Assembly: GCA_964654465.1 (NCBI GenBank)
Contig: CAZZIO010000035.1
Span: 1-64,000 of the forward strand
Direction of reading: 5' to 3'
Length of the DNA stretch: 64,000 nucleotides
Origin: an uncultured Dictyoglomota bacterium
GTDB lineage: Bacteria > Dictyoglomota > Dictyoglomia > Dictyoglomales > Dictyoglomaceae
Part shown: one piece after another, positions 18 to 48,885 of the stretch
How the letters are laid out: every line of letters begins with the position of its first letter
Numbering within the stretch: the stretch's first letter is position 1
Notes under the pieces: model-generated
Told to the model about the DNA's origin: nothing
Seen by the model: the letters and a program-made list of their open reading frames with translations, nothing else
The model's database searches: none
Position numbers and translations under genes: made by a program

Positions 18-135
18 TACTGGTGATTAGAGCGGAGGGGAAACGCCCGTTCCCATTCCGAACACGGAAGCTAAGCCCTCCAGCGCCGATGGTACTGCCC
101 TGGCAACGGGGTGGGAGAGTAGGTCATCGCCAGAG
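18..135 (+). rRNA. rrf: 5S ribosomal RNA
   Basis: Canonical 5S motifs CCCATTCCGAACACGGAAGCTAAGC, GCCGATGGTACTG and GGGAGAGTAGGTCATCGCCAG; terminal helix CTGGTGA/TCGCCAG. Ends are approximate. Confidence 0.97.
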
Positions 136-206: not shown

Positions 207-235
207 TTGACAAAAAATTTTTAAAATGTTAGTAT
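207..235 (+). promoter_or_regulatory. Sigma70/SigA promoter TTGACA-N17-TAGTAT with extended -10 TG
   Basis: TTGACA 207-212, TG 227-228, TAGTAT 230-235; predicted start near 241-242. Confidence 0.75.
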
Positions 236-240
236 TATTT

Positions 241-328
241 CAAAAAGAATTTGTTAAGAACCTTTCCAGGCGAGGGTCCCCTTCCCCCCTCACCCATCAC
301 CCCCTACCTCGCCTGGAAAGTTCTTTTA
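241..328 (+). ncRNA. Candidate sRNA or leader: 14-bp GC-rich stem with a 31-nt C-rich loop
   Basis: CTTTCCAGGCGAGG (262-275) pairs with CCTCGCCTGGAAAG (307-320); loop GTCCCCTTCCCCCCTCACCCATCACCCCCTA; promoter upstream and TTCTTTT downstream. Confidence 0.5.
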
Positions 329-359
329 ATTAATATATGCAAAAAGGGAGGAGTTTAAA

Positions 360-878
360 ATGAAAAAAATGATGAAGAATAATAGATTTTTAAAAATTTT
401 TTTAATGATTATATTATTTGTCCTATTAATTCATACATCTTACTCAATAGCCAATATAGGAGAAAATGAAAAAGCTATAGATTTTTCACTTAAAGATCTA
501 AAGGGGAAAAATTATAGGCTTTCTGATTTTAAAGGGAAAGTTATTTTATTAAATTTTTGGGCTACATGGTGCCCTCCATGTAGATATGAAATGCCGTTAT
601 TAGATAAGCTATACAAGGAACATAAAAATAAAGGATTTGAAATAGTGGCTGTTAGTCTAGACTCCAATCCTAAAAATGTTAATGATTACTTAAAGAATAA
701 TCCAGTTAGTTTTACTATTCTTTCTGACAGAGAAGGAAAAGCAGGATATACATATCAAATTGTAGCTATACCAACATCTTTTTTAATTGATAAAAATTTT
801 ATTATAAGAAAAATTTATTTAGGAATTATCTCAGAAAAGGATATTAAAAAGGAATTGGAAAAATGGCTAAAAAAGTAA
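360..878 (+). CDS. TlpA/ResA-family thiol-disulfide oxidoreductase (membrane-anchored)
   Basis: N-terminal hydrophobic anchor; LNFWATWCPPCRYEMP and AIPTSFLID motifs. Confidence 0.92.
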   Translation: MKKMMKNNRFLKIFLMIILFVLLIHTSYSIANIGENEKAIDFSLKDLKGKNYRLSDFKGKVILLNFWATWCPPCRYEMPLLDKLYKEHKNKGFEIVAVSLDSNPKNVNDYLKNNPVSFTILSDREGKAGYTYQIVAIPTSFLIDKNFIIRKIYLGIISEKDIKKELEKWLKK

Positions 879-16255: not shown

Positions 16256-16542
16256 TACTTTATCTCCCCCCGACGAGAAATTTCGTTTTGTAATTCTTCT
16301 TTAATTTTTTGTAATGTTCCGAAAGAAACCTCACATCTTAAAGCATGTGAAAATGCTCTTTTCTTGAAAGCCAAATCTAAACATTCTATCTTTGGACATA
16401 AATATGCACCTCTACCCGAAGCCTTACCAGTAGGATCAAAACTTATATTATTATCTTCATCTCTAACAATTCTCAAAAGCTCTCTTTTGGGCTTTTTTTC
16501 TCCGCAACCTATACATGTTCTTATAGGCACATGCTTACTCAC
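16255..16542 (-). CDS. ylxR: YlxR/RnpM RNA-binding protein
   Basis: PIRTCIGC and GRGAYLC motifs. Confidence 0.92.
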   Translation of the reverse strand: MSKHVPIRTCIGCGEKKPKRELLRIVRDEDNNISFDPTGKASGRGAYLCPKIECLDLAFKKRAFSHALRCEVSFGTLQKIKEELQNEISRRGEIK

Positions 16543-20146: not shown

Positions 20147-20896
20147 ATGGAACCTAAATATAAAAGAATACTTCTAAAAATAAGCGGAGAATCGTTCAGT
20201 GGAACTCAAGGTTTTGGTTTAGATCCTGAGAGTATTAAAAATATTGCTGAAGACATAAAAGAAGTTCATGATTTAGGGGTAGAAATAGGAGTTGTTGTAG
20301 GAGGAGGAAACTTTTTTAGGGGCAGAGAAAGTAGAACTTTAGGAATAGATAGGGTCACTGCTGATTATATGGGAATGTTAGCTACAACAATAAATGCTCT
20401 TGCATTACAGGATGCATTAGAAAAACTTGGAGTTGTAACAAGAGTACAAACAGGAATTGAGATGAGACAAATTGCTGAACCTTTTATAAGAAGAAGAGCC
20501 ATAAGACATTTGGAGAAGGGTAGAGTAGTAATTTTTGCAGCTGGAACTGGAAATCCTTTTTTCTCTACCGACACTGCTGCTGCTTTAAGGGCAGCTGAAA
20601 TTAAAGCAGAAGTTATTCTAAAAGAAACAAAGGTTGATGGAGTTTATAACAAAGATCCATTAAAGTATCCTGATGCTGAAAAATTTGATTCCATAGAACC
20701 GATTGAATTTCTTAAATTAAGATTGCAAGTTTTAGATGCTACAGCAGTTTCTTTATGTATGGATAATAAAATTCCTATAATTGTATTCAACATGTCCGAA
20801 CGAGGGAATCTTAGAAGAGTTATATTAGGAGAAAAAGTAGGAACCTATATAGGAGATGTTGAAATTATATCCGAGAAGGGGGGAGAAGATGGGTAA
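20147..20896 (+). CDS. pyrH: UMP kinase
   Basis: [19 protein letters not shown] and [10 protein letters not shown] motifs. Confidence 0.97.
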
Positions 20897-35846: not shown

Positions 35847-36090
35847 AAAATAAAAGCTTCTCAACCACAACAAGGATGAGAAGCTCCCACGGTACCACCT
35901 TTATTGCCTTAAGATAATTATACTTAAGGCCTCTCTTCTCTTTAACGCAGAGATACGTGAAATCCTACTAAAAGTTTCAGATTTCAAGCTCCGAGGCGAG
36001 TTCTATAGACCGCAACACCAGGTCACACCAACCCCCTGGCTCTCTGTAAAATATGCAAATCTACATACTGCTCCTCTTCATCGCCTTTGA
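35847..36090 (-). promoter_or_regulatory. T-box riboswitch, Leu (CUC) specifier
   Basis: Minus strand: AGTA box, CAGAGAG, GGTGTGA, GAA-CTC specifier, T-box AAAGGTGGTACCGTG, terminator AGCTTCTCA..TGAGAAGCT-TTTATTTT. Confidence 0.93.
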
Positions 36091-36344: not shown

Positions 36345-38057
36345 ATGAAAAATAAAAATTGGGTGAGGGAAAAGGGGGATATAAGTTTAATAACAGCTTT
36401 AACTCTTGCAATTTTTGTAACTGCTCTTATTGCTTTACTTTTAAATCTTCCCATTGAACAATCTTACTTTACGCGCAGAAATCAAGCAAGAGATCAGGTT
36501 TTATATGCTACTCAAATAGGAATCAAAAGTATTTTAACTACTGCAAGATATTATTTAAAAGAAGAAATAGGTAAACTTAAAGTCTCCGAAATTACAGAAG
36601 ATAGAATGAGAAATATATTATCTTCATCAAATCCAAATTTTATAAATACAATTCAATTTATATATACAAATACAGCTCAGGTGGATCCTACTACAATATA
36701 TTCCTTAAATAGTTATTCTTTTACTTTATCTGCTTATTCTGCAAGTGTTAGAGGTGGAGTTACAGATTATATAACCTATACATATAATTACACCATTGTA
36801 TGTACAGGTAGGAAGGTAAATTTTTCACCTGCAGTTACTCTTACAGTTACTGTTACCGGAAAAATTGAAGGAGTTTTACGAAGAGAAAATTTTGCAAGAT
36901 TTGCCCTATTTACAGATTTACATCAAATGGCTGATGGCTCAACAGTATGGTTTACAGATAGGACACGATTTTATGGACCAGTTCACACCAATGGGGAATT
37001 TGCCTTTGCTTATACTCCACAATTCTTTGATATAGTGACATCATCTGCAGCAACTGCAATGTTTTACAATAGAGGAAGAACAGTAAGACTTAGTGCAGAT
37101 AGAAATCCTCCAAATGACGTTCCATTCTTTGCACAAGGATTTATAAGAGGTGCTAGTAAAATTGATCTTCCACCTACCACATATACTCAGCTTTATGCAG
37201 CGCTATCTTATTTTCCTGGTGATGTTTTTCCTACTTATTCTCCAACATACTCTATTATTAGAAGCTATTTAGGTTTACCTGTTAATAACAATCCTCCTCC
37301 AGATGGTGTATATACTATTACAATTGCAAATGGTGGTGGTATATATGTAAAAGGAGATGCTAGTATAGAATTCGGCAAAGACTCATCAGGAAGAGCTGTA
37401 TATACTATCGCCCAAGGAAACAATACATATGTTTTTACTATTGATTCTGAAAATAATAAAACTTATGTAAAAATAGGGAATAATACTATTGTGATAAATA
37501 AAGTACCAAATGGAGTTATATATGTGGACGGAAATATAACAAGTATAAAGGGGTTAATTCAAAAAGATCAAAGATTGTCTGTTATTGCAGCGAACACAAT
37601 TACTATCACAAATAATCTTGTTTATGAAGATGATCCAAGAAATAATCCTAATGCAATTAATGTTCTTGGTCTTTTAGCACAAAATGGAAATATATGGATT
37701 GATACCAAAAATCCAGATGGTACTCCTCTTAGGGATCCAAATATTCATGGAGTATTAATGGCCCCAAATGGAGTCGTACAAGTAATGAACTATAATACAA
37801 GATCTCCTGCAGGTGATGTACATTTACTTGGAGGAATTATATCAAAAAGGTACGGAGCATTTGGAACTTTTACTACAGATAGAAATGGTAATCCCGTACC
37901 AAAGACTGGTTATGGTAGAGATTTCTGGTATGATTATAGAATGCGTACTGGGTATGCACCTCCATATTTCCCTACTACTAATAGAACTATTCAGGAAGGT
38001 AATCCTCAAACCCAGAGATGGGTAACTATAGATTCATGGGTGGAGAGCTGGAGATGA
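36345..38057 (+). CDS. Large PilX-like minor pilin / pilus-tip protein (DUF4900-like beta-rich C-terminus)
   Basis: KG|DISLITAL hydrophobic N-terminus; GPVHTNG, IYVDGNI and YDYRM..PPYFP motifs. Confidence 0.75.
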   Translation: MKNKNWVREKGDISLITALTLAIFVTALIALLLNLPIEQSYFTRRNQARDQVLYATQIGIKSILTTARYYLKEEIGKLKVSEITEDRMRNILSSSNPNFINTIQFIYTNTAQVDPTTIYSLNSYSFTLSAYSASVRGGVTDYITYTYNYTIVCTGRKVNFSPAVTLTVTVTGKIEGVLRRENFARFALFTDLHQMADGSTVWFTDRTRFYGPVHTNGEFAFAYTPQFFDIVTSSAATAMFYNRGRTVRLSADRNPPNDVPFFAQGFIRGASKIDLPPTTYTQLYAALSYFPGDVFPTYSPTYSIIRSYLGLPVNNNPPPDGVYTITIANGGGIYVKGDASIEFGKDSSGRAVYTIAQGNNTYVFTIDSENNKTYVKIGNNTIVINKVPNGVIYVDGNITSIKGLIQKDQRLSVIAANTITITNNLVYEDDPRNNPNAINVLGLLAQNGNIWIDTKNPDGTPLRDPNIHGVLMAPNGVVQVMNYNTRSPAGDVHLLGGIISKRYGAFGTFTTDRNGNPVPKTGYGRDFWYDYRMRTGYAPPYFPTTNRTIQEGNPQTQRWVTIDSWVESWR

Positions 38058-38296
38058 AAGATTTAGATAGAATATTGCTAATAATCAGTATAGGCATATT
38101 TATAGTGATTCTCATATTTAGATTGATACCTTCAAAAACCGAAGAATATTCATCTATGGAAATAAAGAGTAAAGTAGAAAGGGATATTAATTTGGAGATT
38201 GAAGAGAAAAATACATATACAAATCCAATCAAAAAGGAGAATGAGAATCATAATAAAAGAGGTCCTTATCCTCCATTTGTGGAGTTTACCGAGTAA
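38054..38296 (+). CDS. Small membrane-anchored hypothetical protein, 80 aa
   Basis: ATGA overlap with the upstream stop; one N-terminal TM helix; C-terminal GPYPPF. Confidence 0.65.
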   Translation: MKDLDRILLIISIGIFIVILIFRLIPSKTEEYSSMEIKSKVERDINLEIEEKNTYTNPIKKENENHNKRGPYPPFVEFTE

Positions 38297-38313
38297 CCTT
38301 AGGGGGTGATGGT

Positions 38314-38874
38314 ATGAAAAATAAAAGAGAAAAAGGACAATCCTTAATTGGAGTGGTAATTTTTGCTATAATTTTGATGGTTCTTGTCTTAGGAGCAACA
38401 GGAGCAACAGTGTTAAGTTTTACCTTAAATAAAAGATTGAAAGATAGAGCTGAAGCTCAAGACATAGCTAAAAACATCATAGAAACAATTAAGGTTTGGT
38501 CTGGGAATAGTCTTGATAACTTTTTATCTTTAAATGAAAATGAAAAGCAGAATGTCCAAGGGGCGATCCCAGCTATTCCAACAATATGTCCAGCTATTCC
38601 AGCTGATCCTTCAGGTGGTGATATGATCTATACACAATTCATGAGCATACCTCAAGTAAATGGATCTCCCAAATATGCTGTACAATTTTTAATTAAGGAT
38701 TACTATCAACCTGGAACTTCCACAGTCATACTAAAGAGAATTACAATTAGGGTATATTACACAAAAAGAGATGGAAAAACTGATACCAGTTTCCACAAGC
38801 CAGGACCTGGAAGTCCACCAAAAAGATATGAAAATCCATTAGCTGAAATTGTAGGAGTTATTTCAAGGCCATGA
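38314..38874 (+). CDS. PilV-like minor pilin
   Basis: KG|QSLIGVVIF prepilin-like site lacking E5; A..IA..IIE helix; KRITIRVYY. Confidence 0.75.
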   Translation: MKNKREKGQSLIGVVIFAIILMVLVLGATGATVLSFTLNKRLKDRAEAQDIAKNIIETIKVWSGNSLDNFLSLNENEKQNVQGAIPAIPTICPAIPADPSGGDMIYTQFMSIPQVNGSPKYAVQFLIKDYYQPGTSTVILKRITIRVYYTKRDGKTDTSFHKPGPGSPPKRYENPLAEIVGVISRP

Positions 38875-39632
38875 AACAAGGAATGTCTTTACCAGAATTA
38901 ATAATATCAATTACCATTCTTTTTATAGTATTAGCTTCTGCTTTTAGTATGTGGTTTGCTATACAAAGGGATCTTATTGTTCAAAGGCTCGATAGAGAAA
39001 TATTTGATCAACTATCTACAGCAAAGTCTCAAATATTAGATTCGGTTCTGAAAAGTATTTTCATATATCCTCCTGATGTGAATATTGTTTTGAGGGATAA
39101 TTCTCGTTTTAATTTGAATATAAATGAAAAAGTATCCTATAATAAACTATTAACTATTTCACCCACATCAGGAGGATATTATTTAAATGCATATTTATCT
39201 GTACCAAGAAATCCTCAAGATGCATTGTTACCAAATTCAAGAATGCTCCTCTATTACAAAAAATTTATAAACTGGGCTCCTCAATATAATACTTTTACTT
39301 TAACTGTTGTAGAAACAGGAGGAACTAGAGTTATTAAACTTGCAAAAATAATTAATTATCCTACAAACATTACCTTTACTACTGGTGAAGGACCTAAGGT
39401 TATAGCTGATTATATAATAAATAATGGATTTACAGTAAATTATTATGTTGTTGATGTAACATCAGCTTACACATATACAACCTATACAAACTCCATAACA
39501 TCGAGAAGTATAAATATACAACAAGTGGAAGTAACTATAAGAGCTCAAAGAAGATATCAAAATATCTACAGAAATAAGGAGATAAAATTTAAAGGTGCAG
39601 TCTTTTTAGAAGAACTTCCTATAGCTTATTAA
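38871..39632 (+). CDS. PilW-like minor pilin
   Basis: QG|MSLPELII class III signal. Confidence 0.78.
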   Translation: MKQGMSLPELIISITILFIVLASAFSMWFAIQRDLIVQRLDREIFDQLSTAKSQILDSVLKSIFIYPPDVNIVLRDNSRFNLNINEKVSYNKLLTISPTSGGYYLNAYLSVPRNPQDALLPNSRMLLYYKKFINWAPQYNTFTLTVVETGGTRVIKLAKIINYPTNITFTTGEGPKVIADYIINNGFTVNYYVVDVTSAYTYTTYTNSITSRSINIQQVEVTIRAQRRYQNIYRNKEIKFKGAVFLEELPIAY

Positions 39633-40159
39633 ATTCTCATTTTTAATTTATAAGAAATATTTCCTTTCCTTAATATTACCTCTCCTTTTTCCACATCTAT
39701 ATTATAAATCTTATATCCATCTATTTGATTTCCTTTCTCTAAAATTGTGCCTTTATCTTCTCCTACTTTTTCAAGAATGACTAATTCTTTTTCTTCTCCT
39801 TTTAAAATACCTTTAAGCTCATATGGAAACTTATCCTCAGAAGATTCTTTCTCCTCTACAAAAAGATTATTAATAGTTTTTATATTTTGACTTGTAGTTG
39901 TATTTTTTTCTTCCTTTACTTTTACAAGAGGAGCGAAAGGATCATCTCTCCCTAATACTAATTTATAGCTTTTTAATGGTTTTATATCAGGTAGTTTTAT
40001 ATTAACATTTTTGTCTGTTTCCAAGGAAGCTTTTTTCACATTTACAATTTCTATATAATCTTCCTTAGATATTATCCTATCTACATTTAACACTAAATAT
40101 GTATTTAAACCCATGGATATTATTAATAATGATCCTAAAAAATATTCTAATTTAGTCAC
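39629..40159 (-). CDS. PilP/GspC-like assembly protein
   Basis: TM anchor, RDDPFAPL, ELKGIL and G..IDGYKI motifs; follows pilO. Confidence 0.65.
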   Translation of the reverse strand: MTKLEYFLGSLLIISMGLNTYLVLNVDRIISKEDYIEIVNVKKASLETDKNVNIKLPDIKPLKSYKLVLGRDDPFAPLVKVKEEKNTTTSQNIKTINNLFVEEKESSEDKFPYELKGILKGEEKELVILEKVGEDKGTILEKGNQIDGYKIYNIDVEKGEVILRKGNISYKLKMRI

Positions 40160-40708
40160 TTATTCCTCTCCTCCTTTAAGAATATATATATCAAAGGATG
40201 TATATAAGATAAGGTTACCATTTTCATTATTTGTTAATTGTATTTGGGTAAAACTTATAGGATAGTTCTGGTTATAAAGATTTCTAAAGAAATCTAAAAA
40301 TTGATTATAGCTTCCTACTAATCTTAATTCTATAGGTAGTTTTTGCATTTTTAGTGGAAAATTTTCTGGTAAATCTTTCACATCTTCCATATCCCCTGGT
40401 TTTATTTCAAAAGATTTTATATTATTTTTCTTTATTACTATACTTAAATCTTTATAAAAGATAGGGATCTCATCCTCTCTTAGAAAAAGAAAATTTCTAT
40501 CAGCAAAAATCAATTTCTTCCTCTCCTCTATTTTATTTAATGTATCCCTAAGAATAGTTAAACTCTCAATAGTATTCTCTAACTCTAATCTCTTATTTCT
40601 ATAAAGGTTCACCAGTTTATTAACCTGACTATATTTAGGCATTATAAAAAGGATTAAGCCTAAGAGAAATATTAATAAAAAAATAAAAATATGAATTTTC
40701 TCTCTCAT
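40160..40708 (-). CDS. pilO: PilO-like assembly protein
   Basis: TM, coiled coil and LPIELRLVGSYNQFLDFF motif. Confidence 0.75.
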   Translation of the reverse strand: MREKIHIFIFLLIFLLGLILFIMPKYSQVNKLVNLYRNKRLELENTIESLTILRDTLNKIEERKKLIFADRNFLFLREDEIPIFYKDLSIVIKKNNIKSFEIKPGDMEDVKDLPENFPLKMQKLPIELRLVGSYNQFLDFFRNLYNQNYPISFTQIQLTNNENGNLILYTSFDIYILKGGEE

Positions 40709-42090
40709 TTTATATAGCCTATCATTCTAAATTTTTGAACAGGTTTATCTCCAACAATCTCTAAAACTGAACTTTCCAATTTTATGTTTTTAACTCTTTC
40801 ATATTGAGATAAAGCAAGCATTAAATCTGCTACTCCTTCGGTATCAAGACTATATCCCTCAATAATAATTTTTCTATCTAAGCCAATCTGAAAATTTGTA
40901 AGCCAACAACTTCTTGGAACAAAATTTTTAAGATCGGAAAGAAACAGAAAAGGTAACGCAACAGATGATCTTTCGTCAAGCCATCCTTCTAAGGTTTGCA
41001 ACAACAAATTGCCATCATCCACTTGTTTTCTTAAATTAAAAATCTGATCATTATATTTTGCTATCTCTTGACTCAAACTTTGTATTCTTCTATTTAAATC
41101 TCTAATTCTAAGATCCAAATAGAAATTCAAGGGAAATAGTAAAGATAAAGATAAAAGCAGAGATAATAAAGAACGGGTAATGAGCTCTCTATCAATATCT
41201 ATTTTCGACCTTATAAAATTGAGATCTGGTACAATCTTCTCTCTATAAAGAATTGAGCCTAAGAGGGGTAAACTTGTCTCTTGTATTAAGCTGGCTTTGA
41301 AAGTTAATGATAAATTTTCCAACAGATTAACTCCTATATTTAAAAACTTATCATCTTCTCCTACAATAACCACAGATTTTTCTTCTATGTCATATAAACC
41401 ACTATTTAAATAGGTGATCATTTCTTCTTTCCAACTTATATAGGCTGGATCTATATCTAAGGAATCTAAGTTTGTAAAATCATTGATACCAACACTTAAA
41501 TTTATAAAGGAAAATAATCTTCTATTATTCAAAAATATGAGATCAGTAGTATCATTTCCAATGAATATAACAGAGGCAATATTTTCCTTTTGTGTGTATA
41601 ATAGATATCTAAAAATTGTTAAAGAGGTTGGCTCAAAACGAATAAGAGATATTTTATTATTTTCAAAAATATCTTTAAAAGAATTTATTATAACCCTTGG
41701 TAAAGTTGCAACAATAAGTTTTACTTTATCTTTATCATCCAATATGGGAGAAAGGGATATAGAATAATTATCTAAACTTATACCTTGAGATTCTTCTAAA
41801 TCATCCAGAATATAGGTTTCAAGCTCCTTAACAGACATCTTTGGATACTCTACGATCCTCATCATTATATCTTTATTCTCAAAAGAAACAACCGCATTAT
41901 TATCTTTAATTTTATTCTTCTTTAAAAATTCATTTAATGTTTTCTTTATCTCTTCTACATCTTTTTTTCTATTCCAGAAATCTCCTTTTGGTATTTCGAA
42001 GGTAAATTTATTTTTTAATTCAACTTTTTTACCTTTAATATTTACTTGCCCTATATTTAACTTTCCATCAATCCAATGAATAGACAACAT
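40705..42090 (-). CDS. Fused PilM-like cytoplasmic domain, TM helix and PilN-like domain
   Basis: N-terminal R..EYPKMS..EL and IFIGNDTTDL; TM about 305-325; coiled coil; VPRSCWLTNF..IEGYSL..VADLM (PilN-like). Confidence 0.7.
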   Translation of the reverse strand: MLSIHWIDGKLNIGQVNIKGKKVELKNKFTFEIPKGDFWNRKKDVEEIKKTLNEFLKKNKIKDNNAVVSFENKDIMMRIVEYPKMSVKELETYILDDLEESQGISLDNYSISLSPILDDKDKVKLIVATLPRVIINSFKDIFENNKISLIRFEPTSLTIFRYLLYTQKENIASVIFIGNDTTDLIFLNNRRLFSFINLSVGINDFTNLDSLDIDPAYISWKEEMITYLNSGLYDIEEKSVVIVGEDDKFLNIGVNLLENLSLTFKASLIQETSLPLLGSILYREKIVPDLNFIRSKIDIDRELITRSLLSLLLSLSLLFPLNFYLDLRIRDLNRRIQSLSQEIAKYNDQIFNLRKQVDDGNLLLQTLEGWLDERSSVALPFLFLSDLKNFVPRSCWLTNFQIGLDRKIIIEGYSLDTEGVADLMLALSQYERVKNIKLESSVLEIVGDKPVQKFRMIGYIK

Positions 42091-42091
42091 A

Positions 42092-42523
42092 TCATTCCTC
42101 TGTCCACTTATTTATAGTAAGAGAATATGGAGCAGAAGTCCCAGTTCTTACTCCTTCTATATTTAAGGCTCTTGTATAAATGTAACTTTCTCCTGTATAT
42201 ACCGATTCAACTTGGGCTGTTGCAGAAATAACAAATGAATTTTCTGTACTATTATAATTATATTCCAATTTTGCAGTCCCCCAAAAGCCTGTAAAGGAAA
42301 AGGTATAAGTATTAGCAAAATAAGCTGATGGATTTACTAGCCATGTTAAACTATAAATAGCTATCTCAGCTACTCCTTCTGCAAGATATAACGCTTGTTT
42401 TTCTCCTATTTGGGCAGAAATACTTTTAATATTCCCCTCCCACATAGATATAACTCCACTTATTACTAAGCTAAGTATAGCAAAAACCAATAAAACTGCA
42501 ACTAAAATTTGTCCTTTTCTCAT
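42092..42523 (-). CDS. Short PilX-like minor pilin
   Basis: KG|QILVAVLL and QALYLAEG motifs. Confidence 0.75.
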   Translation of the reverse strand: MRKGQILVAVLLVFAILSLVISGVISMWEGNIKSISAQIGEKQALYLAEGVAEIAIYSLTWLVNPSAYFANTYTFSFTGFWGTAKLEYNYNSTENSFVISATAQVESVYTGESYIYTRALNIEGVRTGTSAPYSLTINKWTEE

Positions 42524-44151
42524 GGCATTATTGAATTTTTAGAAGCTGGTGTACAATAAGAATAATAATGATAATAGTATATAATTGAGCCAATTTTCCT
42601 TAGTCTTAAGAAATAATAATTTAGTATATTACTACTTTCCCAATTGGCAGGATCTTGAGAATTTCCAAAAATATGTTTTCTTTCTAAAGAATAGTGATAA
42701 TAATAGTAATTAGGAGGTTGAGACAAATATACTCTGTAACCACCCCAGGTTAAAGAATAACTTACTTGATCTACTATATTATTATAATTATCTCTTAATA
42801 CCACATTGCCAGAGTTATTTGGTAAAAGGGATGTGCCCCCTCCAAGACCCGAATTTCGCGTTCTTATGTAAGTATAAGATCCTGGAATATTATAGGACGT
42901 ATTGAGAGTTGAATTACTTCCACCAATTATTGCATATCCATTGGGAGGAATATTCCATGATCCTACCACAACAGTATTAAATCTATTATTATTTATACTC
43001 CAGTTTTGAATATTTATAGTTTGGGTTGTAGGATTATATAATTCAATAAATTCCATATTTCTTTCTCCTCTATTATTACCACTCCTATCAAATGTTGGAG
43101 GATAATACATTACTTCATTAATAATCAATCTCGGAATTAAGCAGTAAACGTACAAGCTTGAAGTATAATAATTTAAACAAAGACTATTTCTCCAATTTGA
43201 CGGATCATTGGAGGGAGCTGATATAGATTTACGAAGAAGAGAATAATAATTATTACCCGATGGATAACCACCCCAAGTATAGGAATAATCTACTTGATCA
43301 ATTACATTTTGCCTATCATCCTCTATAACAACAGATCCATAATTATCAGGCATCTCCCCATTTGCAGAGTAAAGACCTCTTTGCTGTGTTTTCAAATATA
43401 AATAGGAAGATGGAAGATTGTAAAAATTAGTTAAATTTGAATCTTTTCCTCCTATAATAGCATAATTACCAGGTGTTAATAAAAAGCTTCCTGAAGGACT
43501 GTCAAAAATTCTTGTAGTTCTATTAACTCTCCAACCATATAAGTTTACAGTATAAGTTGTTCCATTATACAGAACAATAAATTCCATATCTCTTTCATCT
43601 TGAGAATTTCCATTTTTATCAAGACTTGCAGGATAATACATAATCTCAGTAATGAATATACCTGATAACTGTGGTTGGACTTGAGTTCTTAAAGATACCA
43701 AAGTCATATGTTTTTCATTATTGTCCATGACAAGTGTAATTGATAGAGTTCTTATAGTAGATGTCAATGTGGTGTAGGTACCATTAAAATCATATCCAAT
43801 AAACCTAAGCTCTTTTATTGGACCCGCTTGAATCTCCCCATCAACAGTAAAATAATATTTTCCATTATATAATGTGTAGGAGAAACTTCTTATATCTCCT
43901 GTACAAAGCTGAATGGAAAGTTTACCAAGGGTATCAGTAGCAGAACTTATATCTAACACTTGAGATCCTTGTCTTATCTCTCTTGTTAATCTATCGAGAA
44001 TTATTTGGGCATTTGAGAATATTTCTTGAGATTCTTGTTTTCTACCAAAAAGATCTATGGTTCCTATAAGAACATTGGCAAGAAGAAGAGCAATCATTCC
44101 TAATATTAAAACACCTATAATCACTTCAATTAGGGTTAAGCCATTCCTCAT
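42520..44151 (-). CDS. PilW-like minor pilin with two tandem lamin-tail-like domains
   Basis: NG|LTLIEV; LTREIRQ; duplicated I.I.E.MYYP..D..E.MEFI.LYN.T ... IDQV.Y..WGGY...YSL.RK...P.NW. Confidence 0.8.
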   Translation of the reverse strand: MRNGLTLIEVIIGVLILGMIALLLANVLIGTIDLFGRKQESQEIFSNAQIILDRLTREIRQGSQVLDISSATDTLGKLSIQLCTGDIRSFSYTLYNGKYYFTVDGEIQAGPIKELRFIGYDFNGTYTTLTSTIRTLSITLVMDNNEKHMTLVSLRTQVQPQLSGIFITEIMYYPASLDKNGNSQDERDMEFIVLYNGTTYTVNLYGWRVNRTTRIFDSPSGSFLLTPGNYAIIGGKDSNLTNFYNLPSSYLYLKTQQRGLYSANGEMPDNYGSVVIEDDRQNVIDQVDYSYTWGGYPSGNNYYSLLRKSISAPSNDPSNWRNSLCLNYYTSSLYVYCLIPRLIINEVMYYPPTFDRSGNNRGERNMEFIELYNPTTQTINIQNWSINNNRFNTVVVGSWNIPPNGYAIIGGSNSTLNTSYNIPGSYTYIRTRNSGLGGGTSLLPNNSGNVVLRDNYNNIVDQVSYSLTWGGYRVYLSQPPNYYYYHYSLERKHIFGNSQDPANWESSNILNYYFLRLRKIGSIIYYYHYYSYCTPASKNSIMP

Positions 44152-44153
44152 TA

Positions 44154-44540
44154 TTATCTCCTTCTTGATATTAAACTAACAAGAACTGCTTTACCCTCAA
44201 AATTATCTAATGTATTGTTATTATTTGCATCATTCCAAACTGTAATTGTAAATTGTCTTAGTGAATTTGTAATGTTTGTAATGCTTATTGTATAAAGATA
44301 GCTTGTATATCCAATACTAGCAAAATTTCCAGAAATGGGAAAAGAAGCTGTCCAATTGGCTAAAATAGTTTTTCTATAATCTTCTATAACTCTTTCAGAT
44401 AATTCTAAGCATGTACTTTCAATTTTTTCCATATCATCCTCATTTAAAATATGGTATAACCCAACTCCAAAGGATGCCATAAATATTCCTAAAATAAGTA
44501 TTGATATCAAAACTTCTAAGAAGGTAAAACCTCTTTTCAT
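44154..44540 (-). CDS. PilV-like minor pilin
   Basis: RG|FTFLEVLI signal; LRQFTITVW. Confidence 0.8.
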   Translation of the reverse strand: MKRGFTFLEVLISILILGIFMASFGVGLYHILNEDDMEKIESTCLELSERVIEDYRKTILANWTASFPISGNFASIGYTSYLYTISITNITNSLRQFTITVWNDANNNNTLDNFEGKAVLVSLISRRR

Positions 44541-44971
44541 AAACCTTCCACTTCAATAAAACCTAAGGAATTTATCCTTATAGTAGAAGTATAATTATCA
44601 ATTATTAATGTTAAAATGGCATAAGTTTCTGTATAATCAGCTGTAAAATTGCCATCTCTATCAAAGGAAAATAAAGTAGCAGTTGTATTTACAGAAATAT
44701 TATTAAAAAATCTTGTTACAATCTTTCCCTTATCATCAAGGAAGGTATAGGAAGTATATGCCTGAGGTGAGATTATTAATATCCAGTCAGTTTTATTAAT
44801 TATTGCTCTTTGTCTTATATATCTTATATCCTGAATAAATTGATTTGTAGTATTCTGTAATAATATTTTAGAGTCCGGTTTACTCAATATAGAGTTATAT
44901 GTAATCCATAAAAGGATTCCTAAGATGGATATTACTACTATAACCTCTAAGAATGAAAACCCCTTTTTCAT
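44537..44971 (-). CDS. FimT/FimU (GspH)-like minor pilin
   Basis: KG|FSFLEVIV signal; DIRYIRQRAI, FDRDG and INSLG motifs. Confidence 0.8.
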   Translation of the reverse strand: MKKGFSFLEVIVVISILGILLWITYNSILSKPDSKILLQNTTNQFIQDIRYIRQRAIINKTDWILIISPQAYTSYTFLDDKGKIVTRFFNNISVNTTATLFSFDRDGNFTADYTETYAILTLIIDNYTSTIRINSLGFIEVEGL

Positions 44972-45013
44972 GTTTTTATTTTATCAAATCTTTAAAAGTT
45001 TTTACAAGAAGTT

Positions 45014-45469
45014 TTAAAAACTCACCTTTCCATTTTTATAAAACTTTATAACTCTCTTTGTAAAAAATGTTGAAAGTGATATTTCACCTTCTGGATATAT
45101 ATTTCCATTTTCAAAATAAAAAGTATAAGTCCCTTTTGGGCTATATGCTCTTATACCTGAGGGAATAAGATGAGGAGAAAGATATATTTTTTTTGTTTTT
45201 TCCCCATACATCCAATAAAATTGAATAGAATTTGTCTTAGAAGAGTAATAAAAATCAAAGACTACTTTTTCATTTTTTAAAACTGAAAGCTGTAGAGCAT
45301 AGTTTGCATTTATTACTATCTCATGGGAAATTATAAATGCTTGTACCCCTAACCAAAAAAATATATTAAAAAACATATAAAGAAGAATTAATAAAATACA
45401 TGTAAGAAGAGTATATAATAATGGACTTATAATTTTTTTAAGCTTTAAGATATTAAAAAGTTTCTTCAT
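45014..45469 (-). CDS. Pilin-like membrane protein without a canonical prepilin cleavage site
   Basis: TM, then YALQLSV..VVFDF, FYFENGN and FYKNGKV, reminiscent of the FimT/GspH layout. Confidence 0.55.
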   Translation of the reverse strand: MKKLFNILKLKKIISPLLYTLLTCILLILLYMFFNIFFWLGVQAFIISHEIVINANYALQLSVLKNEKVVFDFYYSSKTNSIQFYWMYGEKTKKIYLSPHLIPSGIRAYSPKGTYTFYFENGNIYPEGEISLSTFFTKRVIKFYKNGKVSF

Positions 45470-45477
45470 TTATTAAC

Positions 45478-45505
45478 AAAAAGCCCCGAAGACAAGCTTC
45501 GGGGC
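45478..45505 (-). terminator. Intrinsic terminator after the major pilin
   Basis: GCCCCGAAG-CTTGT-CTTCGGGGC-TTTTT on the minus strand. Confidence 0.85.
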
Positions 45506-45523
45506 ATAAATATAGTTACAAAA

Positions 45524-45907
45524 CTATGGAGATGTATAAGATAAAGTATAGGATTTTGCTGAACCTTGATAAACTAATATATGAGCATTACTCTCATCCC
45601 AAGTAGCAGGTGCAGATCCTTGAGAAGTATATGTTTGCCCATTATACGGACATACTGGTGTTTCTGAGAAGTAGTTAGGATCTTTTAAGAAATTAACAAA
45701 TGTCTGTGTATCTGTTGGATATGTGTTATTTTTGTTCCTATAATATTCTAAGCTCGTTCTTATTATTGCTATATTTGTTCTCTGAGCATTTCTTTTGGCA
45801 TCTGCTACCGCATCAAAATATCTTGGTAATGCGATAGCTATAAGGATTCCAAGAATAGCTACTACAACTAAAAGCTCTAACAAGGAGAAACCTTTACTAT
45901 TTTTCAA
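45524..45907 (-). CDS. Major type IV pilin (PilA/ComGC-like)
   Basis: KG|FSLLELLVVVAILGILIAIALP; strong SD AAGGAGGTGA before TTG 45907; own promoter and terminator. Confidence 0.88.
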   Translation of the reverse strand: MKNSKGFSLLELLVVVAILGILIAIALPRYFDAVADAKRNAQRTNIAIIRTSLEYYRNKNNTYPTDTQTFVNFLKDPNYFSETPVCPYNGQTYTSQGSAPATWDESNAHILVYQGSAKSYTLSYTSP

Positions 45908-45954
45908 ATAACTCACCTCCTTTCCCAAAATTTAAAAATTATTATCTTTACTAA

Positions 45955-45982
45955 ATTATATCACAAATTTATCATATACCAA
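45955..45982 (-). promoter_or_regulatory. Major pilin promoter TTGGTA-N16-TATAAT with extended -10
   Basis: Minus-strand TGaTATAAT at 45963-45955. Confidence 0.6.
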
Positions 45983-45992
45983 GTATTAATTC

Positions 45993-47195
45993 CTACCTTC
46001 TAAAAAGTCTTACCATATTAAACATTGGGAGATACATTGATATAACAATGAAGAAAACTACAATACCTAAAAACAATGTTAATGCAGGTTCTATTAGAGA
46101 GGTTATTCTTTTTGTTCCAATCTCTATCTCTCTTTGGGAAAATCTACTATATTCTTCTAGCATAGAATCCAATCTTCCACTCCTCTCCCCTACTGCTATC
46201 ATTTGCTTTAAAAGAGGGGTAAATACATTCTCATCAATAAGCTCTGATAAATTTCTTCCCTCCAAAACCCCAGAAAGGATTTTTCTAAGATTCTCTGAGA
46301 AATATAGATTTCCCATTACGTCTTCAAGGATTTCCAAAGATTGGGTTATTAATATTCCACCTGTTATAAGTACATAAAAGGTACTAGTAAATCTATTAAG
46401 TAACACTTTTCGCCACAGATTGCCTATTTTAGGAATATTCAGTTTAAACTCATCCCACCATCTTTTTATCTTTTTAATTTTTAGGGCTTGTTTTATTCCA
46501 ATAATAATCAAAAAAAACAAGATAAAAATAATAAATAGATTTTTCTTAACAAAATCTCCTAATAATATAGTAATCCTTGTGGGAAGAGGAAGAGGTACAT
46601 TAGTTCTCCCATAGATTCTTTGAAAAGTAGGCACTACAAAAGTTAGCATAAATATTACAACCAAGATTGCAGCAACCATAACTATTATAGGGTAAGTAGT
46701 AACTGATTTTATTCTTTCCCTTAATTCATGTTGTTCATCAAAATACCTTGAAAGTCTCTCCAACATAATATCAAGACTTCCTGTAATTTCACCCGTTCTC
46801 ACTAAGCTTATAAATATTTTGGGAAATACATTAGGATATTTAGAAAGAGCCTCTGATAGACTCAATCCAGAATCAACACTTTTTCTTACATCATTAAGTA
46901 TATCTCTAAAATAAGGATTGTTGGTTTGAGATGATAAAGTTGTAAGACATTCTGTAAGAATAATTCCAGATCTTAAAAGAGTTGCAAATTGGGATGTGAA
47001 TAAAACAAGCTCTGGAAGAGTAACTTTCTTTTTATAGGTTAAAGTTTTCCATAATGAGGATTCTTTTTTTAAGGATATTACATATAATTTCCTTAATTTT
47101 AGAATTCTTCTTGCTTCTCTTTCATTGGTTGCTTCAATTATACCTTTATATCTTCTTCCCTCAAGATCTCTTGCCACATATCTATAGGAGGGCAA
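45993..47195 (-). CDS. pilC: Type IV pilus platform protein PilC/GspF
   Basis: Two GspF repeats (GEITGSLD, GERSGRLD); MYLPMF C-terminus. Confidence 0.93.
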   Translation of the reverse strand: MPSYRYVARDLEGRRYKGIIEATNEREARRILKLRKLYVISLKKESSLWKTLTYKKKVTLPELVLFTSQFATLLRSGIILTECLTTLSSQTNNPYFRDILNDVRKSVDSGLSLSEALSKYPNVFPKIFISLVRTGEITGSLDIMLERLSRYFDEQHELRERIKSVTTYPIIVMVAAILVVIFMLTFVVPTFQRIYGRTNVPLPLPTRITILLGDFVKKNLFIIFILFFLIIIGIKQALKIKKIKRWWDEFKLNIPKIGNLWRKVLLNRFTSTFYVLITGGILITQSLEILEDVMGNLYFSENLRKILSGVLEGRNLSELIDENVFTPLLKQMIAVGERSGRLDSMLEEYSRFSQREIEIGTKRITSLIEPALTLFLGIVVFFIVISMYLPMFNMVRLFRR

Positions 47196-47196
47196 A

Positions 47197-48885
47197 TTAA
47201 TCCTCCTCCCAAGCTATTACTCTACGTGCCTCCTCAATAGTAGTTATTCCTGATAATACCTTTTCTCTTGCATTCATATGTAAGGTTTTCATCCCCTCTC
47301 TTAATGCCATATCCCTAATTTCATCAATAGATGCCCTTTTATTTATTAATGTCCTTATGTTCTTAGTTATTTTTAATAACTCAAAAATTCCAGTTCTTCC
47401 TGAATATCCTGTATAATTACAGAATAGACAACCTTTTCCTCGCACAAGTCTTATATTTCTTCCTTCATCTTTTGTTAATCCGAGTTCTTCTATTTCCTCC
47501 GATGAAGGTATATACTCTTCTTTACAAGATAAACATATAGTCCTTACTAATCTTTGGGCTACTATCCCTATAAGTGAAGATGCAATTAAAAAAGGTTCCA
47601 GCCCCATTTGTATCAATCTCGCCACAGCACTTACAGAATCATTTGCATGAAAAGTACTTAACAACAAATGACCCGTTAGAGCAGCTTCAATAGCGGTATT
47701 TAATGTTTCTGAATCCCTAATTTCACCCACCATTATAATATTGGGATCAAGTCTCAAGATATTTCTAAGTCCCATAGCAAAATCTATACCTATCTTTGGT
47801 TGTATCTGAATCTGATTTATTCCTGGAAGTTCGTATTCTACCGGATCTTCTAAGGTTATTATATTTACTGATGGTTTATTTAAAACATTTAAAGCTGAGT
47901 ATAATGTGGTAGTTTTACCGCTTCCTGTAGGTCCTGTGACAAGGATCATTCCAAAAGGTCTTTTTATAAGATGTTCAAATACATTAAGGTCTTCATTTGT
48001 CATGCCCAATCTATCAAGCTCAATAAGTACTTTTGATTTATCCAGTAATCTTATAACTACCATTTCTCCGTGTATAGTACCCACTGAAGCTACTCTTAAA
48101 TCAAAGATTTTATTTTCATATCTATAAGTTGCTCTTCCATCTTGAGGTCTTCTTCTTTCTGCTATATCCATTCCTGATATTACCTTTATTCTTGTTACTA
48201 CAGCATCTTGAATTTCCTTAGGAATACTCATAATATCATAAAGAATTCCATGGATTCTATATCTTACCTTCATCTCTTTCTCTTGGGGATCTAAATGGAT
48301 ATCGCTGGCATTTCTTGTGATTGCTTCATTAATTATAGAAGATACCAATCTAACAATAGGTGCTTCTTCAACGCCTATTGCAGGAGGGGCTTCAACTATT
48401 GTTTCTACCGGCATACTCCTTTGAAAGTCTTGAACAGCAGAAAGGGTACTCTTCTCTAAAGGGAAAAGTTTTGACATAATCTGATTAAACTCTTTATCGG
48501 TAGTAATAAACAATCTTATTGGTGCCTTTACTATTCTTCTTATTTCATTTACTACTACAGGATCAATAGGAGGAACTATAGCAACATGTATTATTCCACT
48601 TTCTCTTTTCATAGGTATAAATTTATATTTTCTTAAAAGATTTTCTGGAAAGGATCCAGCTAATTTTTCATCAATAGGGATTTCAGACAAAGAAATATAG
48701 GGAATTTCACTTTGCCTTTCTAATACTTTTCCAATATCCTCGGGCTTTACATATCCTCTCTCGATCAGTATTTGTCCTAATTTAACCCCAGTTTTCTTCT
48801 GTTCCTCGAGAGCTTTCTCTAATTGCTCCTTTGTTATAAGTCCTAATTCTAAAAGATATTCACCTAAGGGCTTTTTCTCTTTCAT
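47197..48885 (-). CDS. pilB: Type IV pilus assembly ATPase PilB/GspE with MshEN-like N-terminus
   Basis: [53 protein letters not shown]; CxxC zinc motifs. Confidence 0.94.

Follow-up and report, generated by a model that had tools for sequence, protein, structure and literature searches.

A conserved RNA hairpin with an unpaired C-rich loop lies near the start of the window, that is, the whole stretch of 64,000 nucleotides analysed here, and it is a real RNA motif confined to Dictyoglomaceae within the collections searched. We assume, with a probability of about 40%, that the hairpin represents a new C-rich regulatory RNA of the anti-Shine-Dalgarno (anti-SD) type, for which a pilin-like gene in the same window is a candidate target. 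That the hairpin RNA does regulate the pilin-like gene seems plausible, if doubtful; it is put no higher than plausible since most of the match between the two comes from likeness to the ribosome docking pair. Whatever its function, the motif, with its covarying 14-bp stem and invariant 31-nt loop, is new to Rfam. The features of the hairpin locus are as follows.

19–135, plus strand: 5S rRNA gene (Rfam RF00001, 96.4 bits), the end of an rRNA operon, which opens the contig.
207–235, plus strand: promoter-like site of the sigma-70 type (TTGACA-17-TAGTAT, the -10 box preceded by TG), the best in 1–1100 (10/12).
256–325, plus strand: hairpin in the minimum free energy (MFE) fold, with the 5' arm at 256–275 (C262 bulged) and the 3' arm at 307–325.
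276–306, plus strand: C-rich loop GTCCCCTTCCCCCCTCACCCATCACCCCCTA, 31 nt with 20 C and 1 G.
294–306, plus strand: 13-mer CCATCACCCCCTA, the 3' end of the hairpin loop.
326–336, plus strand: U-rich tail TTAATTAATAT, 3' of the stem, a weak terminator at best.
360–878, plus strand: gene for a TlpA/ResA-like secreted thiol-disulfide oxidoreductase, with SD GGGAGGAG at 346–353.

In the MFE fold, the stem has 19 pairs and one bulge, and the predicted hairpin persists at 75 °C (-11.0 kcal/mol). Transcription from the promoter-like site is predicted to start at about 242. The U-rich tail follows the stem in the genus of the window and in one other genus of Dictyoglomaceae; in a third genus there is no U-tract after the hairpin, and the SD of the next gene lies about 6–17 nt downstream. 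An intrinsic terminator was considered and rejected: a scan of 1–1100 gave zero terminator-like sites, the loop is 31 nt long, and the U-tract is missing in one genus. The product of the downstream gene matches the Pfam families AhpC-TSA (6.9e-32) and Redoxin (7e-31), and against the NCBIfam ResA subfamily it scores 142.7 bits, under the cut-off of 170.

The hairpin was sought in 40 relatives of the window's genome (G000; 1,911,136 bp in 72 contigs, 31.6% GC, the window being contig C35), namely 10 Dictyoglomaceae and 30 genomes from other families. It appeared in all 10 Dictyoglomaceae relatives, at a single locus in each and with 93–100% identity between diverged flanks, and no convincing match was obtained in the 30 genomes from other families. 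The alignment of 14 distinct sequences, which come from 11 genomes and three metagenome variants, yields a consensus structure with a 14-bp stem and compensatory changes at three pairs. The loop is nearly invariant in these sequences, its variants comprising changes in the initial base or two, a single A>C, a CC insertion, and a C deletion, and CCCATCACCCCCTACCT within it is identical in 14/14. A search by loop pattern matched seven Dictyoglomota contigs and, with no stem, five high-GC genomes, the latter being taken as chance matches. Similarly, a metagenome scan by stem pattern returned 10 low-GC matches, all with the same loop, and the remaining 15 loci turned out to be unrelated high-GC sequences. 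In Rfam scans of the whole window, only the 5S rRNA and a T-box reached the gathering score, and a scan of 1–700 at E ≤ 10 gave weak matches to unrelated families only. A small ORF over the hairpin (by eye in G000: TTG at 251, 35 codons, TAA at 356–358, no SD) was rejected, as an in-frame TAA occurs just before the stem in the relative G008 and all codon positions are invariant.

Six cells of the alignment are U-G stem pairs, compatible with a plus-strand RNA only. This bears on the possibility that the element acts as DNA, with the minus (template) strand folding into a G-quadruplex and the plus strand into an i-motif between inverted-repeat flanks, and so modulates transcription or binds a protein. 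In the loop, CCCCTTCCCCCCTCACCCATCACCCCC fits the (C3+N1-7)4 sequence pattern. Such motifs are rare (five in G000, four in the relative G003), and two of them are conserved, namely the loop and a second C-rich element described below; furthermore, the loop variants consist of C-tract length and one A>C, and the four tracts are always kept. However, the tract linkers and flanks are invariant as well, which a quadruplex does not need, and the stem U-G pairs, fitting for plus-strand RNA, become A-C mismatches on the other strand. In addition, the second conserved motif is found within an obvious RNA gene with a terminator. An action as DNA appears very improbable.

In every genome that carries it, the hairpin is located 3' of the 5S rRNA gene at a distance of 30–130 nt, as would be seen if it were a terminator or processing signal of the preceding rRNA operon. 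Such a signal would also suit the lack of a promoter evident by eye between 5S and hairpin in G006, G007, G010, and one metagenome contig, as well as the presence in the 23S rRNA of G001 and G003 of GGGGTGATGGG, which complements the invariant portion of the loop over 11 nt (about 1638–1648 in G003; L142:7424–7434). This 23S site occurs in both rRNA operons of each of the two genomes, and an 11-nt match of this kind could be about what chance gives. Yet G001 and G003 have two rRNA operons each and one hairpin each. A consensus promoter (by eye, TTGACA/TTGACT-N16-17-TATxAT in G001–G005, G008, and G009) separates the 5S gene from the hairpin in most genomes, and neither a terminator nor an RNase site needs an invariant 31-nt loop. 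We find a role in rRNA termination or processing highly unlikely. The rRNA operon of G000 itself is probably unassembled, since no 16S or 23S rRNA was found in the 72 contigs of its assembly and the window's contig starts at 5S.

The neighbour on the other side offers an alternative that is a good deal more serious. The hairpin lies directly 5' of the tlpA-like orthologue, on the same strand, in 11/11 genomes, and it is quite possible that it is a cis leader of the tlpA-like mRNA (a 5' stabiliser, a means of translational control, a protein site, or a C-rich loading site for Rho), the match to the pilin-like RBS being incidental. The genus without the U-tract, in which the hairpin stands about 6–17 nt before the SD, is in line with this. 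So is an RNA-library contig of a relative that covers 128–741 and 820–1003, extending from the 5S end across the hairpin and on into the tlpA-like gene, with no difference from the window listed between 250 and 321. This contig fits read-through into the gene; the data behind it (one run, a small share, assembled into contigs) give no ends, strand, or level, and DNA carry-over is possible. Against a cis leader, the loop is invariant while the SD and spacer of the gene vary, which is more constraint than a stabiliser or a Rho site needs. The hairpin is far better conserved than the tlpA-like protein, whose identity across genomes is 50.7–83.1%. The tlpA-like region also has no special complementarity to the loop (rank 985/1793 among the initiation regions of G000 and 767/1877 in G003), and pairing in cis between the loop and this gene's SD was accordingly rejected.

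We now turn to the reading of the hairpin as a regulatory RNA of the anti-SD type and to its candidate target, for which the following features are relevant.

36345–39632, plus strand: gene row around the target, with a 570-aa DUF4900 protein, an 80–92-aa ORF, the pilin-like protein, and a 253-aa protein that matches N_methyl weakly.
38300–38312, plus strand: extended GGGGG-type SD region TAGGGGGTGATGG, the exact reverse complement of 294–306.
38314–38874, plus strand: pilin-like gene ('pilV-like'), 186 aa, the stop of which overlaps the start of the next gene.

An earlier note on this DNA claimed a perfect 13-nt complement between the hairpin loop and the RBS of the pilin-like gene, and both sequences and coordinates proved to be as claimed, with T38313 separating TAGGGGGTGATGG from the ATG at 38314–38316. 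The exact 13-mer has one copy per strand in the window, and 294–306 and 38300–38312 are its sole exact copies in the whole of G000. If up to two mismatches are allowed, the window has six matches vs. 0.58 expected, a count reached in 0/100 shuffles. A blastn-short search with the 31-nt loop against G000 ranked the pilin-like site as the best complementary match (E = 0.43), and this site is the best ungapped loop complement genome-wide both in G000 and in G003. A repeat or mobile origin of the match was rejected, as the homology stops at 13 nt in G000 and at 14 nt in G003.

The label 'pilV-like', under which the target gene was introduced, is justified in part. The gene has a pilus neighbourhood (PilN with 33.8 bits; PilO and PilM under their cut-offs) and pilin-like features, but its product shows neither a prepilin methylation motif nor a family model: no Pfam and no NCBIfam family was matched at E ≤ 0.01. 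The nearest ESM Atlas clusters are of the N_methyl / PilV family with a score of 0.97, which serves as a lead only. The N-terminus reads KGQSLIG. The N-terminal consensus of pilins carries a glutamate, E5, and the protein has G at that position.

Most of the 13-nt match can be traced to the likeness of both partners to the ribosome docking pair. The 16S rRNA 3' end of two complete genomes of the same genus is GGATCACCTCCTTTCT. Loop bases AUCACCCCCU equal the 16S tail AUCACCUCCU at 9/10 positions, with a single U>C change; in coordinates, loop bases 296–305 (ATCACCCCCT) are the 16S tail ATCACCTCCT but for that one change. The target AGGGGGTGAT, in turn, pairs with the 16S tail over 10 bp, including one G.U, and the duplex of the 16S tail with the pilin-like RBS (-16.7 kcal/mol) is more stable than the 5th percentile of the 1793 sites (-16.1). 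A long match between loop and RBS is thus partly expected, because the loop resembles the 16S tail and the target is an extended SD. Ten of the 13 matched bases follow from these two circumstances, and only the outer three go further. The earlier note had itself cautioned that the enrichment of SD-like sequences before genes makes chance matches likelier. The same 10 bases also favour a cis leader with an incidental pilin match. The U>C change in its 16S-like part makes the loop a perfect partner for SDs of the GGGGG type, for which the ribosome relies on a G.U wobble. Extended SDs are frequent in this genome: GGAGGTGA is present in 40/1793 initiation regions of G000 and GGGGGTGA in 9/1793, and the longest contiguous complement to the true 16S tail measures 12 nt in G000 as against 13 nt in G003. 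In general, matches between C-rich loops and RBSs call for caution, being largely built in by the SD/anti-SD likeness.

The excess over this background was assessed in the initiation regions delivered by a simple ORF caller (1793 in G000; 1877 in G003, whole chromosome), with orthologues of the two genomes defined by 1580 reciprocal best hits. The longest exact loop complement in these regions is the pilin-like site, with 13 nt in G000 and 14 nt in G003. Among 1000 shuffled loops, 5.1% matched at least 13 nt in at least one of the 1793 G000 regions, 2.4% reached 14 nt in G003, and 0.5% had at least 13 nt at orthologous sites of the two genomes. A 16S-like null of 1984 13-mers, each within one change of the 16S core, gave exact complements for 60/1984 in G000 and for 72 in G003; in 9 cases the two genomes had them at orthologous sites. 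The match thus exists and is nominally rare, with post-hoc figures of about 3–5% for a single genome and about 0.5% for a conserved site; exact-match statistics nominally below 5% argue against a purely incidental match beside a cis leader. Orthologous initiation regions with a complement of at least 9 nt number 16, as compared to 3.7 ± 3.7 for shuffled loops, 1.8% of which reach 16.

Duplex energies are less telling. The pilin-like site ranks 11/1793 in G000, where 10 other initiation regions outscore it, and 6/1877 in G003. A minimum duplex energy equally extreme was found in 7/60 shuffled loops; the top-20 lists of the two species overlap in 8 genes vs. 5.3 ± 1.65 for shuffles, with 6/60 shuffles reaching 8; and the Spearman rank correlation between species is the same for loop and shuffles. 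The summed top-5 energies are the only energy measure to stand above all 60 shuffles. Energy ranks alone therefore weigh little, since shuffled C-rich loops are about equally good, a result that also suits a cis leader, and the energy ranking was rejected as target evidence. The ranking against all RBS regions that had been suggested as a check, run here by duplex energy, thus places the site only 11th of 1793; by exact match, the site comes first. The earlier note also mentioned shorter matches of the loop at two further RBSs.

20877–20884, plus strand: AGGGGGGA, an ordinary SD of the G-run kind, upstream of the frr-like start (20889); rank 42/1793.
16265–16271, minus strand: GGGGGGA, likewise an ordinary SD of the G-run kind, upstream of the infB-like start; rank 256/1793.

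Both are present where they were reported, but they are common G-runs and amount to noise: among the 1793 initiation regions, GGGGGGA occurs in 18, AGGGGGGA in 10, and GGGGG in 167.

The search for pilin-like orthologues succeeded in 8/10 relatives, G006 yielding a C-terminal piece only, and none was found in two incomplete genomes (86% and 72% complete). In G003 the RBS TTAGGGGGTGATGGGG is complementary to the loop at 14/14 positions, and in G001 the RBS TTGGGGGGTGATGG is so at 12/13, the changed base giving a G.U pair. The leaders of these two genes have indels in the spacers on both sides of the match, and their start codons differ. In all five genomes from two other genera, by contrast, the gene has an ordinary SD that lacks GTGATGG, and the loop is unchanged there. 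A family-wide search with the 14-mer at up to one mismatch found the hairpin itself as the only match outside the genus. Co-conservation, which had been proposed as a check, is thus seen within the genus (G001 and G003) but not beyond it (5/5 other-genus genomes lack the match), and its absence outside the genus is again what an incidental match to a cis leader would give. Two further observations concern how specific such an RBS is. In G001, an identical 13-mer RBS also precedes an unrelated gene for a periplasmic binding protein; at that place G003 has a near copy of the 13-mer, and the G000 orthologue has neither. SDs of the GGGGGTGA type are kept from G000 to G003 in 5/9 cases regardless.

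Under the most likely mechanism, the hairpin RNA would arise either from a promoter of its own or as the 5' portion of the mRNA for the tlpA-like gene. The GC-rich stem of 14–20 bp would hold the loop open, and the 16S-like part of the loop would pair with GGGGG-type SDs, the pilin-like gene being among the candidates. Both partners are tied to the ribosome docking pair, one by the 3' part of the loop and the other by its extended SD. On this view, a small RNA would be transcribed, would pair with its target inside the cell, and would repress it. The duplexes predicted at 75 °C are -13.6 kcal/mol for the loop with the RBS vs. -6.8 kcal/mol for the 16S tail with the RBS, and occlusion of the pilin-like RBS is thermodynamically feasible because the loop duplex is the stronger one. 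The proposal that a small RNA represses this gene is partly supported, with points on both sides. It is helped by the conserved plus-strand hairpin, its single-stranded C-rich loop, the promoter-like site upstream (10/12), and a complementarity that spans the whole SD region and is kept in G001 and G003. On the other hand, the complementarity is absent in other genera, its energies are matched by shuffles, and the 13-mer RBS stands before an unrelated gene of G001 too. The switch of pilus tips suggested in the earlier note would be a further, speculative step.

A literature search found no characterised sRNA from Dictyoglomota. If trans-acting, the hairpin RNA would be the first riboregulator described for this phylum, and its mimicry of the 16S tail would tell GGGGG from GGAGG SDs in heat that only long GC-rich duplexes withstand. 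In a bolder version, the RNA would be a family-wide 'ribosome-tail mimic' that outcompetes ribosomes on GGGGG SDs at about 75 °C and controls genes for type IV pilus components (pilin-like, pilA, pilC, pilM) and for an adaptor-like Clp_N-only protein, with a second C-rich sRNA beside it. This seems unlikely to us; if it were true, it would place anti-SD riboregulation in a deep-branching thermophilic phylum.

Several known systems invite comparison. The stem-loops of RoxS/RsaE, FsrA, and CsfG of Firmicutes present unpaired C-rich tracts that pair with G-rich mRNA sequences, and several sRNAs with C-rich regions coexist in B. subtilis (PMC8216469; PMC6158497). Like these RNAs, the hairpin presents unpaired C-rich tracts, and one genome has two C-rich candidates. 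It differs from them in being a single hairpin with a 31-nt loop that bears three or four C-tracts, in belonging to the phylum Dictyoglomota, in having no terminator common to all genomes, and in being a candidate RNA known from sequence. Membership of RsaE/RoxS or another curated sRNA family was rejected, as no Rfam covariance model matched the hairpin.

The CcsR ('cuckoo') RNAs of Alphaproteobacteria (PMC8034643) originate in the 3' UTR of a DUF1127 gene and comprise two hairpins, both with CCUCCUCCC; their loops carry an anti-SD, and they can be cut from a longer mRNA. An anti-SD in the loop is shared with the present hairpin, and excision from an mRNA would suit a hairpin in a 5' leader; it is unlike CcsR in that there is one hairpin, placed 5' of the TlpA-like gene and 3' of 5S. 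It was not assigned to CcsR as defined in PMC8034643: CCUCCUCCC is absent from 241–340, and the hairpin is flanked by 5S rRNA on one side and a Redoxin-family gene on the other. There is also a likeness to the 16S 3' tail itself, with 9/10 equal positions in the loop and a common ability to pair with extended SDs; the differences are the U>C change, which favours GGGGG over GGAGG, the flanks, and the further C-tracts in the loop. A candidate noncoding RNA of the same phylum, the Dictyoglomi-1 motif (RF01703), is described in PMC2864571. The hairpin is distinct from it, RF01703 not being listed in the scans of the window, of 1–700 (E ≤ 10), or of the second C-rich locus.

Within the genus, the pilin-like gene may be regarded as a candidate target of the putative anti-SD-type RNA, and it is neither the sole one nor the best by energy. 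The best duplex predicted genome-wide (-38 kcal/mol; 20 bp with two bulges) is that with the leader of a 139-aa Clp_N-only gene (C40:214474–214890, minus strand). Its conserved G-rich stretch GGTGATGGGTAGAGGGAGGGAA (L035:1475–1925, equal to C40:214474–214924, minus strand) can pair with 20 loop nucleotides. All five genomes in which the Clp_N-only gene occurs keep TGATGGGT with GAGGGG after it (in G005, AAGGGG), at a protein identity of 49–91%; a search of the third genus did not recover the gene.

Pilus genes also appear near the top of the energy list of G000: pilC is in second place, one pilA copy out of two (C47:817–1245) in ninth, and pilM in twelfth. Pilus-cluster genes in the top 12 of 1793 make up 4/29, as compared to a shuffled mean of 1.56, and 4 was reached in 0/88 shuffles, in a test that was picked after the list had been seen; the pilus set as a whole is unshifted (Mann-Whitney p = 0.14). 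The pilC site sits inside the 3' end of the upstream coding region, which may explain its conservation. The pilA site is kept in G001, weaker in G003, and absent from the third genus. Two tandem 142-aa pilin genes (L036:206–1245 on contig C47, minus strand) are alike over the first 45 residues printed; the RBS of one is G-rich and complements the 5' part of the loop (rank 9/1793), and that of the other is plain AAAGGAGGT (rank 1407). A second large pilus/pseudopilus row, on the strand opposite to the pilin-like gene (39629–48885, minus strand), encodes a PilO-like protein, a fusion of PilM and PilN, and several pilin-like proteins, and it also has second pilC-like and pilB-like genes, and a third pilus gene set is present on contig C52. 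These further rows mean that the genome has several minor-pilin sets.

A second C-rich RNA candidate was noticed outside the window, at L209:520–730, corresponding to about 6119–6329 of contig C46 of G000, plus strand. Its promoter-like TTGACA box is followed by an A-rich body and by ACACCTCCCCCTCTCACCCCCTCCCCC, and this run leads into a clear terminator (CCCCCTGAG..CTCAGGGGG, then TTTATTTTTTT). No Rfam family matched this locus. Its C-rich part includes the exact 16S core CACCTCC; G003, G001, and G004 have it in identical form, G005 has it almost unchanged, and G009 keeps some of it. The occurrence of this candidate in the same genomes counts in favour of the hairpin being a regulatory RNA. 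In the window itself, the T-box leader lies at 35869–36090 on the minus strand (149.5 bits), upstream of an acetolactate synthase / ilv row on that strand.
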